DNA of 37,517 bases from Tricharina praecox (GCF_024521635.1 NW_026250438.1:248001-285517); one strand, 5' to 3'; positions 12,521-17,522 are shown, counted from the stretch's first letter. Program-made: numbers and translations. Notes: generated by a model from the letters alone, not told the origin.

Positions 12521-15327
12521 ATGGTCAAGTAAGTGATGCCTTTCCCCGCTTTTCGTCAATTTTTGCTTCCGCTGCTCCGCTTCGAAAAAACGAGAAGAGC
12601 ATTCAATTGACGATGTTGGTCTTACAGCTTCACCGTCGCGGAGATCCGTGAACTCATGGACCGGACGACAAACGTCCGTAACATGTCCGTTATTGCTCAC
12701 GGTAAGTCTTTCCGTCGATGCTGAACGAACCGTCGACGGAGGACACATCTCTGACGTTCCCATCCCATAGTCGATCACGGAAAGTCTACCCTCACCGACT
12801 CGCTGGTCCAGCGTGCTGGTATTATCTCTGCCGCCAAGGCTGGAGAGGCCCGATTCACCGACACTCGGCAGGACGAGCAGGACCGGTGTATCACTATCAA
12901 GTCCACTGCCATTTCTTTGTACGCCGAGCTCCTCGAGGAGGACGTCAAGGACATCAAGCAGAAAACCGACGGCAACTCTTTCTTGATCAACTTGATCGAC
13001 TCCCCCGGTCACGTTGATTTCTCGTCTGAGGTTACCGCTGCCCTCCGTGTCACTGATGGTGCTCTGGTTGTCGTCGACTGTGTCTCCGGTGTGTGTGTCC
13101 AGACCGAGACTGTGCTGCGTCAGGCTCTTGGTGAGCGTATCAAGCCCGTCTGCATCATCAACAAGGTCGACCGTGCCCTGTTGGAGCTCCAGGTTTCCAA
13201 GGAGGACTTGTACCAGTCTTTCGCCCGTACCGTCGAGTCCGTGAACGTCATTATCGCCACCTACTACGACAAGACCCTCGGTGACGTCCAGGTCTACCCC
13301 GACCAGGGCACCATTGCTTTCGGTTCCGGTCTCCATGGATGGGCTTTCACCGTCCGTCAGTTCGCTGGCCGTTACGCCAAGAAGTTTGGTGTTGACAAGG
13401 AGAAGATGATGGAGCGTCTTTGGGTATGTTGAGGCCTTTCCTCTATGTTTTCTGGACCGAGACTGACAAATCGAATAGGGCGACTCTTTCTTCAACCCCA
13501 AGACCAAGAAGTGGACCAAGGTTGAGCAGTACGAGGGCAAGGCTCTCGAGCGTGCCTTCAACCAGTTCATCTTAGACCCCATCTTCAGGATCTTCGCTGC
13601 CATCATGAACTTCAAGAAGGATGACACCACCAACCTTCTGGCCAAGTTGGAGATCGTCCTCAAGGGTGAGGAGAAGGACCTCGAGGGCAAGGCTCTCCTG
13701 AAGATTGTGATGAAGAAGTTCCTTCCCGCCGCCGATGCGCTGTTGGAGATGATCTGTCTTCACCTTCCTTCCCCCGTCACCGCCCAGAAGTACCGTGCCG
13801 AGACTCTGTACGAGGGACCCATCGATGACGAGTGTGGTGTCGGTATCCGCGATTGTAACCCCAATGGACCCCTTATGCTTTACGTCTCCAAGATGGTGCC
13901 CACCTCCGACAAGGGTCGTTTCTACGCTTTCGGACGTGTCTTCTCTGGAACCGTCAAGTCCGGTCTTAAGGTCCGCATCCAGGGACCCAACTACCTTCCC
14001 GGAAAGAAGGAGGACCTTTTCGTCAAGGCCATCCAGCGTACCATTCTCATGATGGGTCGTTACATTGAGCCCATCGATGATGTCCCCGCCGGTAACATTT
14101 GTGGTCTGGTCGGTGTTGACCAGTTCTTGTTGAAGTCTGGTACCCTTACCACTTCCGAGACCGCCCACAACCTGAAGGTCATGAAGTTCTCCGTCTCTCC
14201 CGTCGTGCAGGTCGCCGTCGAGGTCAAGAACGCCAACGATCTCCCCAAGTTGGTCGAGGGTCTTAAGCGTCTGTCCAAGTCCGACCCTTGTGTCTTGACT
14301 TTCATCTCGGAGTCCGGTGAGCACATCGTCGCCGGTGCCGGTGAGTTGCACTTGGAGATTTGCTTGAAGGATCTTGAGGAGGACCACGCCGGCGTTCCTC
14401 TCCGTGTCTCACCCCCGGTGGTCTCTTACCGTGAGACCGTTTCCGGTACTTCCAGCATCACCGCTCTATCCAAGTCGCCCAACAAGCACAACCGTCTTTA
14501 CGTCACTGCTCAGCCTCTTGACGAGGATGTCTCCAAAGACATTGAGAACGGAAAGATCTCTCCCCGTGACGATTTCAAGGCCCGCGCTCGTATCCTTGCT
14601 GACGAGCACGGATGGGATGTCACTGATGCCCGTAAGATTTGGTGCTTCGGTCCCGACGCCAACGGTGCCAACTTGCTCGTTGACCAGACCAAGGCTGTTC
14701 AGTACCTGAACGAAATCAAGGACTCCGTCGTCTCCGGTTTCCAGTGGGCCACCCGTGAGGGTCCCATTGCTGAGGAGCCCATGCGCAGCGTCCGCTTCAA
14801 CATCCTCGATGTTACCCTTCACGCCGATGCCATCCACCGTGGAGGTGGACAGATCATCCCCACCGCGCGTCGTGTGCTCTACGCCGCCACCCTGCTCGCC
14901 GACCCCGCTCTCCTCGAGCCCGTGTACTTGGTCGAGATCCAGGTCCCCGAGTCCGCCATGGGAGGTATCTACGGTGTTCTTACCCGACGAAGAGGTCACG
15001 TCTTCTCGGAGGAGCAGCGCCCCGGAACTCCTCTGTTCAACGTCAAGGCTTACCTTCCCGTCAACGAGTCGTTCGGTTTCACCGCCGATCTCCGTTCCAA
15101 CACCGGAGGACAAGCTTTCCCCCAGTCGGTCTTCGACCACTGGCAGGTTCTGCCCGGTGGATCTCCCATTGACGCCACCACCAAGTCCGGACAGATTGTG
15201 CAGGAGATGAGGAAGCGAAAGGGTATCAAGGAGGTCGTGCCCGATGTCAACAACTACTACGACGTAAGTTATCCCATCATCCGGTTTCGATGTTTTCCAA
15301 CACTGACTTATCTTCCAGAAATTGTAA
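12521..15327 (+). CDS. EFT2: Translation elongation factor 2 (eEF2). Exons 12521-12528, 12628-12701, 12771-13423, 13479-15263, 15319-15327
   Basis: MVNFTV...[44 protein letters not shown], the diphthamide loop [16 protein letters not shown], and the C-terminus YYDKL. Four canonical introns and strong codon bias. Confidence 0.98.
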
Positions 15328-15938
15328 ACGGGTCTACGGGTCGGGTGTTTTGCTTGGTTGGTTTCTTTAGGTCGGGAAAATACTTTTCTTTTTGCTGGGG
15401 TTCTTTAAGGTTGAATTCAGTTGTTCTTCACCTCGTGACCCTATGAAGTGATTTAGTGATGATGTCCAAACCAAATCTTAAACGCGTGCCATCTATTCGC
15501 CGAACCAACATACGGTAGGTTGGAATGTTGTAGTCCAATCACCGGAAGGAGGGACCAAGTAGATACTATGTTGAAGGAAGACCGGTTGACTTGCGAGTCC
15601 ATGGATTCTGTCAGTGGCCGTCTGCTTTTCGGTCATTTCATACCGTTGGTCTCGTTCTTAATGCTTGTCGCTACAGCCACCGGTTCTTATCGCGTGTCTG
15701 GCATTCCTACCTGATATCTAGAAGTCGTGGCGATACTGCTTTTGGATGTTTCCATGACACTTGCACTCCGATTTTCTACACAAATGTTTCTTCACATCTT
15801 CACTCTTCACATCTTCGCGTCCTCACGATCTCTCCAAAGAATGCACGGCATGATAATTTTATTGCCTTCCTGCCACCATTCCCATCTCCCTTATCCACTC
15901 CTCACCGTCCCCCACGAACATCGAACATCGACTCGAGT

Positions 15939-16302
15939 CTATTCCCCACCCTTCATATTAGCTTTCTATCCCGACCACATCTCTCTCTCCTCCATCTCCG
16001 TCGTACGTAGTCGGTGGGTGGGGGGTATGTAAACGGGAAAATCAGATCAAGTGTAGATTTAAGTTAATCCACATATCCGTCCCAAGTCCTCCGCAAGACT
16101 GCAGGATCCCACACCTATCCCGGCCGAGACCGGAGGGGGGATGATGGAGCCTGCGGAGAACGAAGGGACATCGTTCGGAATTGCAGAACTCTAAGTGCTC
16201 ATCATTTTGGCGGACACGTGGTGTGTCCGTTTGTTTGGGGGAAGGGTAAGAGGAGGGGGAGCGTGGAGGGGGGAAGAGAGCGGGGAGGGGAGGGAGTCGT
16301 AC
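15939..16302 (-). other. Predicted spliceosomal intron (364 nt) of a non-coding or 3'-UTR host transcript, containing the C/D RNA
   Basis: Minus-strand donor G|GTACGA at 16302, the same hexamer as the donor of MKT1 intron 20607. Branch site GCTAAT at 15962-15957 and acceptor AATAG ending at 15939. The flanking exons have no credible ORF. An AATAAA lies downstream near 15863-15858. Confidence 0.62.
16038..16209 (-). ncRNA. Box C/D guide RNA (snoRNA/scaRNA-like) with two guides: U2 snRNA (human Am30-equivalent) and 5.8S rRNA (human Gm75-equivalent)
   Basis: On the minus strand: box C ATGATGA (16205-16199) and box D CTGA (16045-16042), closed by an A/T terminal stem. CTACACTTGAT (16056-16046) lies directly before D and is complementary to U2 AUCAAGUGUAG. 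GAGTTCTGCAATT (16191-16179) lies directly before a D'-like CCGA (16178-16175) and is complementary to 5.8S AAUUGCAGAAUUC with one G:U pair. A long hairpin lies between them. Confidence 0.85.
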
Positions 16303-16447
16303 CGTTTGTTGTGCGTGGTTGTGGAGGGAGGGAGAGGTGGGATGGGATGGAGGTTTTTTTATGCTGGTTGTGTTTACTAGGGTCTTGGCGTATGGAATGG
16401 CACTCGTTTATTAAGGAATGGATGTAGTTATGCGCTAGCTACTCTAG

Positions 16448-17522
16448 CTAGCTGTTCCACCCATAAGTCGCGGCAAGCCGACTCTTCAGATGTCTCGCGG
16501 CGGTGAGCACCTCCTCGTCCTCGATATTCGCGCCCCTCTCTCCACGCTTCCTTACAATCTCGCTCGGAATCCCGCCGAGCGGCGTGCTATCGACCGGATG
16601 GCAGAAATACGCCATCGAGTACCGCTCCCCCGCCTGGTCCCCCGGCGCGACCACTCTGTGCACAGTGCTCCGCAGCAGGCCCGCGGTCCAATAGCTCAGC
16701 AGATCCCCGATATTGACGCATATCGCCTCCGACACGACGGGGACGGGACTCCACCCGCCGCCGGGGGAGAGTATTTCGAGGCCGCTCGCGCCGTCGTGCT
16801 GGAACAGTAGCGTGAGGGAGCCGTAGTCACTGTGCGCGCCCGCGCGGATGTCGCTCGATGGGTCGTAGTCGCCGCTGGAGATGGGGGGGTAGTAGAGCAG
16901 CCGTAGTATGGAACCCGACGGGCCGTTCGTGGACGTGTGCGAGGCGGTGAAGTATTCTGCGCCGCCGGCGGAGGCGGAGATGGATAGTGCTTGCGCGAAT
17001 AGTCGGAGGAGCCGCCGAGAGACGTTGGCGCAGAGCGTCGAGAAGTGCGCGATCGTGGGAAGGTGTGGCGACAGCGTGGGTGTGATCGGTTGTTGCGGTT
17101 CGCCGGATTGCGTGAATTCGCCGAAGTTCATGGCTCTGGCATATGTCAGCTTCCCCGCGGATGTGCCGGGGAGGGGAGCGCTCTACTGTTTGAAGTCCCC
17201 GCGCTTCTGGTTCGGTGGATCCAGGGTTTCCGAGAGCATTCCGGACCAGCCCTTGTTGTTTGCGGATATGACGCAGCTTGCTTTTTCGGATTCCGGGGAG
17301 GCAAAGAATTGCTTTGACTTTCGGGGTGTCAGCCAAAGCTCGTTAGAGAGTTAGATGGCATACAATTTTGAACATCTCATCTACCGCCTCGGGAGTAATC
17401 TCGGTGCCAGCCATCGTGATGTAGACGAACCCCAGTGTCTTTGCAGCTTCGAGTAGCTGTGCAGCACACTCAGGCGTGTCGGTGAGCGTTATTATGTCGA
17501 GGGAGGCGGCGAGTTTGGGCAT
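16448..17522 (-). CDS. 2-oxoglutarate/Fe(II)-dependent dioxygenase (IPNS/DIOX_N plus 2OG-FeII_Oxy type). Exons about 17522-17364, 17317-17187, 17135-16448
   Basis: DIOX_N-like LLEAAKTLGFVYI, then LRLLYYP, the HxD motif in RAGAHSDYGSLTLLFQ, VNIGDLLSYWTAG, the distal His in STVHRV and RYS (2OG-binding RxS). Introns 17363-17318 and 17186-17136 join the pieces in frame. Confidence 0.92.

Follow-up and report, generated by a model that had tools for sequence, protein, structure and literature searches.

A long box C/D snoRNA of the Afu-191 family is very probably encoded at 16210..16038 on the minus strand of the 37,517-base stretch of Tricharina praecox DNA that was analysed as a whole (hereafter the window), where it is hosted by an intron and is predicted to guide the methylation of both U2 snRNA and 5.8S rRNA. 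Judged by its sequence, the RNA is a long-form member of the known fungal double-guide family Afu-191 (RF01499, snoStrip CD_35), and the locus differs from the described family mainly by an enlarged internal hairpin and by its position in an intron. The arrangement of boxes and guides is not attributed to chance because of homology, namely an end-to-end alignment with the Rfam family Afu_191 and a match to an independent homolog model (R1).

Architecture of the box C/D snoRNA

The whole snoRNA gene was placed at 16038..16210 on the minus strand from the sequence, the Rfam Afu_191 alignment and model R1. Read 5′ to 3′ on this strand, the flank AAA (16208..16206) is followed by the C box ATGATGA (16205..16199), a 7-nt spacer gcactta (16198..16192), the 13-nt D′ guide GAGTTCTGCAATT of the 5.8S G75 type (16191..16179) and the D′ box CCGA (16178..16175), a variant of CUGA. 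An expanded D′-C′ internal hairpin of about 91 nt (16169..16079), delimited by folding and by comparison with the environmental homolog L006, precedes the degenerate C′ box ATGTGGA (16074..16068), which was recognized from the sequence and from its position in homologs. An 11-nt spacer (16067..16057), the 11-nt D guide CTACACTTGAT of the U2 A30/31/32 type (16056..16046), the D box CTGA (16045..16042; also placed by the homolog alignment) and the flank TTTT (16041..16038) complete the RNA. Both guides were assigned from the sequence, the Afu_191 alignment and published targets. Measured from C box to D box, both boxes included, the RNA spans 164 nt (16205..16042), and a mature length of about 170 nt is predicted. 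The locus has the features of the box C/D class, with a C box ATGATGA near the 5′-end, a D box CTGA near the 3′-end and a short terminal stem, the AAA and TTTT flanks being able to form only three to four A-U pairs.

The C box is identical in all ten aligned sequences, and it is part of the pattern with which the homologs were retrieved. The D′ box reads CCGA in five of these sequences and CTGA in the other five. At the C′ position the homologs carry ATGTGGA, ATGCGGA, ATGGTGA, ATGTTGA, TTGTGGA or TTGTTGA, and TG..GA is kept throughout; the degenerate CCGA and ATGTGGA of the T. praecox RNA occupy sites at which 9/9 distinct homologs show a CYGA and a TG..GA motif, respectively. Each string composed of a guide and its box occurs a single time in the 37,517 bases of the window. 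With up to two mismatches, CTACACTTGATCTGA gave one match against 0.08 expected from 100 shuffles, and with up to three mismatches GAGTTCTGCAATTCCGA gave one match against 0.03 expected from shuffles.

Immediately outside the RNA, in the host intron, lies a palindromic hairpin of 17 nt, GGACAC-ACCAC-GTGTCC (core CACGTG; 16212-16228, minus strand), 3 nt upstream of the 5′ AAA. This palindrome could serve as an external stem, stop processing or be bound by a protein.

Guides and predicted targets

In box C/D RNPs, fibrillarin (Nop1) methylates the 2′-OH of the target nucleotide that pairs with the fifth base of the guide, counted upstream from the box. Both guides of the T. praecox RNA directly abut their boxes, CTGA and CCGA. 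The fifth base upstream of CTGA is T16050, so that the target of the D guide is an A, and the fifth base upstream of CCGA is C16183, so that the target of the D′ guide is a G. For the D guide the predicted target is an A in the 5′ region of U2 snRNA (Am30 in human, Am32 in Aspergillus fumigatus and Am31 in Neurospora crassa), while for the D′ guide it is a G at the Gm75 position of 5.8S rRNA; this assignment was derived from homology to the Afu-191 guides. The D guide together with the D box is identical to the Afu_191 consensus in Rfam, and the D′ guide differs from this consensus at 2 of 13 positions. The D′ guide ends in the seven bases TGCAATT, which form the reverse complement of AAUUGmCA, the oligonucleotide that contains human Gm75.

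In human 5.8S rRNA, Gm75 was reported to be 92% methylated as measured on the AAUUGmCA fragment, and SNORD96A is described as “predicted to direct Gm75 (5.8S rRNA)”. For the U2-Am31 guide, the table of Liu et al. 2009 (PMC2780460) gives SCARNA9 as the counterpart in human. For filamentous fungi, 5.8S Gm75 is given as predicted, not mapped, as far as the published accounts examined go, and in A. fumigatus it is based on a snoscan prediction (Jöchl et al. 2008, PMC2377427).

Several claims of the earlier note on this DNA were borne out at this level. Its coordinates (16038..16209) and its minus-strand layout of boxes and guides agree with the sequence, and its use of the fifth-base rule, by which an A in U2 and a G in 5.8S are targeted, is matched by T16050 and C16183. 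Its central proposal, one RNA with a D guide for the equivalent of U2 A30 and a D′ guide for the equivalent of 5.8S G75, is supported in the form already published for Afu-191.

Assignment to the Afu-191 family

The whole window gave no match to Rfam at gathering scores, and none at E-values up to 0.5. In a focused Rfam scan of 15700-16600 (901 bases) the best match was Afu_191 (RF01499) at 16040..16210 on the minus strand. The alignment takes in all 93 positions of the model (1-93), and both guides as well as the C, D′ and D boxes are in register. The score was 22.8 bits compared with a gathering cut-off of 60, and the E-value was 0.34 for the 901-base search. The score falls short of the cut-off because roughly 80 nt are inserted between D′ and C′. 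With respect to the defining properties of the family, both guides are present on one RNA in the order D′ for 5.8S G75 and then D for U2 A30/32; the gathering score of 60 bits is not reached, and the length of about 90 nt is exceeded, the RNA having 164 nt from C to D. Homology to Afu_191 is also established through a chain of intermediates, in which eight loci that match Afu_191 and the locus L006 gave a model that in turn matches the window. Among the points that count against the assignment to a functional long Afu-191-type dual guide are the low score with its E-value of 0.34, the degenerate C′ and D′ boxes and the empty whole-window Rfam scans.

The dual guide for U2 and 5.8S as a kind of RNA is already published (2008, 2009 and 2018) and present in Rfam. 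Jöchl et al. 2008 (PMC2377427; Table 1) give the putative targets of Afu-191 (accession AM921920) as “Gm75 in 5.8S and Am32 in U2 snRNA”. Canzler et al. 2018 (PMC5824354) name AM921920 (CD_35) among eight box C/D families with two conserved target regions and describe this double guide as “found in Pezizomycotina”.

The novelty implied by the earlier note therefore does not hold, since homologs are catalogued as RF01499 and as CD_35 (AM921920), with the related CD29 in N. crassa. Its description of the RNA as hidden is right insofar as the Rfam scan at gathering scores misses it, but the family itself had been described. The comparison with Rfam that the earlier note had proposed had a divided outcome, with Afu_191 aligned end to end in the focused scan but at a score under the cut-off; the proposed comparison with published Aspergillus and Neurospora snoRNAs succeeded, as Afu-191 has the same dual guide and CD29 is related.

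Environmental homologs and an independent model

Homologs were retrieved by scanning metagenome contigs with a pattern that comprised the C box, the D′ guide and the D′ box only. The C′ region, the D guide and the D box were outside the pattern, and conservation of the C box and the D′ guide in the retrieved set is accordingly given by construction. The scan yielded 27 loci. A U2-type guide directly before CTGA was found in 13 of them, though it is absent from the pattern, and these 13 loci represent nine distinct RNAs (L004, L006=L014=L027, L007=L025, L009, L010, L012, L013=L023, L017 and L026). Eight further loci (L001, L002, L003, L005, L018, L020, L021 and L022) are snoRNA-like with another D guide. 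The remaining six (L008, L011, L015, L016, L019 and L024) lie within reading frames that are open across the whole locus and for this reason seem to be coding sequences that match the pattern by chance. In 12 of the 13 loci with a U2-type guide its 13-base core is exact, and in the other it has one substitution. Only two variants of the U2-type guide were seen, both of them C-to-T changes (L007/L025 and L010), which by the pairing rules should keep a G-U pair with a G of the target.

The eight loci of the second group keep the C box and the 5.8S-type D′ guide, with a different D guide before CTGA, which suggests that the guide combined with the 5.8S guide varies among lineages. In L020 and L021 this D guide may be complementary to 18S rRNA.

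The Rfam check of the homologs covered 19 of the 27 loci, eight duplicates being left out. L012, L026 and L017 passed the gathering score of Afu_191 (60) with 89.4, 84.1 and 80.7 bits, respectively, and sub-threshold matches to Afu_191 were obtained for L013, L010, L004, L007, L022, L001 and L009, the family being the best hit of L013, L010, L004, L007 and L009. L006, the other long form, had no match to Rfam at E-values up to 0.1. The identical 160-nt long form is present in L006, L014 and L027, on contigs of 356 kb, 69 kb and 137 kb with differing flanks. As L006 is without an Afu_191 match and its RNA is common to three contigs, the annotation gap covers a whole lineage. In L010, positions 396-481 weakly match the plant family snoZ221_snoR21b (RF00300) with 27.4 bits against a cut-off of 44.

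A sequence-only model (R1) was built from the nine distinct homolog RNAs with the window left out. In the 37,517 bases of the window it gave a single match, at 16039..16209 on the minus strand, with 52.4 bits and an E-value of 6.5e-16, the E-values of the tool being rough. The earlier note had made its reading depend on boxes and guides being better conserved than their flanks, and this is what was found: a blastn comparison of 15800-16520 with all loci showed similarity only in 16209..16169 and 16075..16039, which are the box-and-guide blocks; the hairpin, the remaining intron sequence and the exons were without similarity. A tblastn search with the proteins of both neighbouring genes (a 2OG-Fe(II) oxygenase and EF-2) against the 27 loci with up to 400 bases on each side gave no match at an E-value of 1e-3, and no conserved host gene was found near the homologs within those flanks.

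These data bear on the possibility that box-like and guide-like strings merely co-occur by chance in a pyrimidine-rich intron. The Rfam E-value of 0.34 in the 901-base search would fit such a coincidence, which nevertheless is extremely improbable: the family model built without the window has one match at 6.5e-16, the 15-17-nt strings of guide plus box are unique at expectations of 0.03-0.08 for two to three mismatches, the same architecture recurs in nine distinct environmental RNAs, and the Afu_191 scores of L012, L026 and L017 contradict an unrelated set of homologs. The earlier note had likewise held that the two guides are not a chance pair, and model R1 as well as the end-to-end alignment with Afu_191 confirm this.

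Internal hairpin and RNA length

The segment 16174..16075 folds into one long irregular hairpin with −50.7 kcal/mol and a z-score of −3.32, and none of 200 shuffled sequences folds as well. A stem-loop after D′ and before C′ is present in every homolog, and its size sets the length from C to D, which is 77 nt in L010, 84 nt in L013, 90 nt in L007, 95 nt in L012, 96 nt in L017, 105 nt in L026, 107 nt in L009, 128 nt in L004, 160 nt in L006 and 164 nt in the window. According to Canzler et al. 2018, 90% of fungal box C/D snoRNAs have 80-135 nt with a median of 93, so that the T. praecox RNA is a long outlier relative to this range. The hairpin of L006 folds likewise (z −3.79) and is identical to that of the window in 53 of 106 aligned columns. 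Among the 22 consensus base pairs of the two hairpins, 11 are unchanged, five have changes on one side, six have changes on both sides and none is broken, these counts favouring structure in that the structure was derived from the same two sequences. A consensus fold of four long hairpins (window, L006, L004 and L009) contained no predicted pairs, the alignment being too divergent. Within the window, the hairpin was rejected as a candidate repeated or mobile element, since a blastn-short search against the window gave only chance words of 10-11 nt and the hairpin is single-copy in the window. A long D′-C′ hairpin is also present in L002 and L003, in which the U2 guide is absent, and a role of the hairpin tied to U2 targeting is therefore disfavoured. 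The ~91-nt hairpin is an enlarged form of the short stem-loop of the family and most likely just holds D′ and C′ together.

A length this far outside the range of fungal box C/D snoRNAs, together with the failure to reach the Rfam cut-off, could also be read as decay, the hairpin insertion having disabled the RNA while a canonical copy of about 90 nt elsewhere does the work. We consider this very improbable. The boxes and guides are intact, and the same long form recurs in L006=L014=L027 with six two-sided compensatory changes and 0/22 consensus pairs broken, so that the compensatory changes point to a maintained structure and not to decay. The position of the snoRNA in a spliced intron at the usual distance from the branch site, and a contig from an RNA library that covers just the snoRNA body (both described below), also speak against a non-functional copy.

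More weight, although still unlikely, has the reading that the RNA is a real, expressed snoRNA with one working guide, in which the terminal C/D pair acts on U2 and the C′/D′ pair with its 91-nt insertion is inactive on 5.8S, or the reverse. It would be in line with the non-canonical C′ and D′ boxes (ATGTGGA and CCGA), with the statement of Liu et al. (PMC2780460), in their account of CD29, that the cognates they identified in other filamentous fungi carry the U2 guide only, and with the snoscan prediction as the source for A. fumigatus Gm75. Against it, the D′ guide abuts D′ exactly and places the fifth position on a G that is methylated in human 5.8S rRNA, and the family is classed as having two conserved target regions (PMC5824354). 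Furthermore, the base of the hairpin puts D′ and C′ within 4-5 nt of the stem, as in the short homologs, and the long form L006 keeps the same D′ guide with a hairpin that is just 50% identical, an argument that is weakened because the retrieval pattern required this guide. A dual guide with both box pairs at work is the reading that we prefer.

Host intron, host gene and transcripts

Contigs of four sequencing runs (X1, X2, X5 and X6) were compared with 15300-16900, uncovered parts being uninformative; the share of words was 0.25 for X5 and 0.21 for X6. The neighbouring genes encode EF-2 (plus strand) and a 2OG-Fe(II) oxygenase (minus strand). A contig of EF-2 occurs in 4/4 runs, exits the window sequence before 15319 and continues with the upstream exon. 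Because of this spliced contig all four runs must contain RNA of this organism, even though X1, X2 and X5 are not labelled as RNA. The last intron of EF-2 has 55 nt (GTAAGT..CAG, 15264..15318, plus strand) and splits off the last two codons and the stop (AAA TTG TAA, stop at 15325..15327), and in X2 a poly(A) run follows after 15430. The mechanical end of the EF-2 ORF at 15446 results from reading through this last intron.

In X2, a contig of 1592 nt (depth 129.6) extends from 16900 down to 16303 and resumes at 15938, skipping 364 bases whose ends are CT..AC on the plus strand and hence GT..AG on the minus strand. The host intron was placed by this junction at 15939..16302 (minus strand, 364 nt, GT-AG), with the 5′ splice site GTACGA at 16302..16297 (G|GTACGA), a branch-like CTAAT at 15961..15957 and the 3′ splice AG at 15940..15939. 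The 3′ terminus of this snoRNA lies about 80 nt upstream of the branch-like site. The last coding exon of the oxygenase was assigned to 16448..17131 on the minus strand from its ORF and a match to PF03171 (E 2.1e-23), and no interruption separates its stop TAG at 16450..16448 from the exon junction 145 nt farther downstream, so that the intron is located in the 3′ UTR. The 3′-terminal exon of the host transcript was delimited by contigs at 15846..15938 (minus strand) and contains AATAAA at 15863..15858; the host molecules end near 15846, where adapter letters adjoin this position in X1 and X2. Unspliced contigs were seen as well (15846..16311 in X1, 15910..16308 in X2 and 15903..16094 in X5). 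The metatranscriptome X6 has a contig of 151 nt that is confined to 16052..16194, inside the predicted RNA, and shows no differing letters. This contig hints at a stable small RNA, with the limits that contigs do not reveal ends, strand or level and that carry-over of DNA is possible.

On the preferred reading the snoRNA is transcribed within the 364-nt intron in the 3′ UTR of the oxygenase mRNA. Splicing and debranching, followed by exonucleases that trim the intron up to the C/D core, would probably set it free. By analogy with the rest of its class, assembly with Snu13, Nop56, Nop58 and fibrillarin may be expected, and fibrillarin at each box pair would methylate the nucleotide opposite the fifth guide base, the D guide selecting the A in U2 and the D′ guide the G at the Gm75 position of 5.8S rRNA.

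In EJC-dependent NMD, mRNAs with a 3′-UTR intron junction well past the stop are often targets of decay. A further reading is that the hairpin, instead of being a neutral expansion, is an extra functional module retained in one fungal lineage and that, in addition, the 3′-UTR intron ties the output of the guide to NMD of the host mRNA. Such a module might bind a protein or direct localisation, and so help a single RNP to meet both U2 and pre-rRNA, or a small RNA might be processed from it. This combination we regard as improbable, and an intron-hosted Afu-191-type guide with an enlarged stem-loop stays the preferred explanation.

Comparison with known systems

Afu-191 of A. fumigatus (AM921920) has the same box order and the same two guides in the same places as the T. 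praecox RNA. The D′ box is CuGA in the Rfam consensus, whereas it is CCGA in T. praecox. Afu-191 was represented by 11 cDNA clones, with a cDNA of 92 nt and a northern band of 90 nt, and is listed as intergenic (PMC2377427); the T. praecox RNA, in contrast, is predicted to have about 170 nt, carries some 80 nt between D′ and C′ that the model lacks, and is located in a 3′-UTR intron.

CD29 of N. crassa, compared by description, is like the T. praecox RNA an intronic box C/D snoRNA with a D guide for the same U2 adenosine and a D′ guide for 5.8S rRNA. It has 101 nt, its D guide is assigned to U2-Am31 and its D′ guide to 5.8S-Am42, both sites were mapped by primer extension, and human SCARNA9 is named as its homolog (Liu et al. 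2009, PMC2780460). The D′ target of CD29 is thus Am42, whereas C16183 in the T. praecox RNA specifies a G of the Gm75 type, as in Afu-191, which sets the locus apart from CD29 (snoStrip CD_29).

The same two target positions are served in human by SCARNA9 (U2 Am30) and SNORD96A (5.8S Gm75), again compared by description; there the two tasks are on two separate RNAs, one of them Cajal-body specific, whereas in T. praecox they are predicted to be combined on one RNA. In the consensus of plant snoR31 (RF01288), a CUGA box is immediately preceded by ACACUUGAUC, the core of the same U2-type guide. This match is weak and partial (17.1 bits compared with a cut-off of 44, E 9.8), the guide is at an internal box, and the 5.8S guide is absent from the aligned part. 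The likenesses to snoR31 and, in L010, to RF00300 possibly reflect deep relationships of both guides outside fungi.

Implications

The T. praecox locus leaves unchanged the picture that emerged from Jöchl 2008, Liu 2009 and Canzler 2018. What the locus adds concerns annotation and genomic context. A standard Rfam scan misses a conserved guide for the spliceosome and the ribosome in T. praecox and in at least one related lineage, because the expansion of the D′-C′ loop lowers the score under the family cut-off, and broadening the seed of RF01499 with long forms would close this annotation gap. In addition, the locus provides a clear case of a fungal snoRNA that is hosted by the 3′-UTR intron of a protein-coding mRNA.
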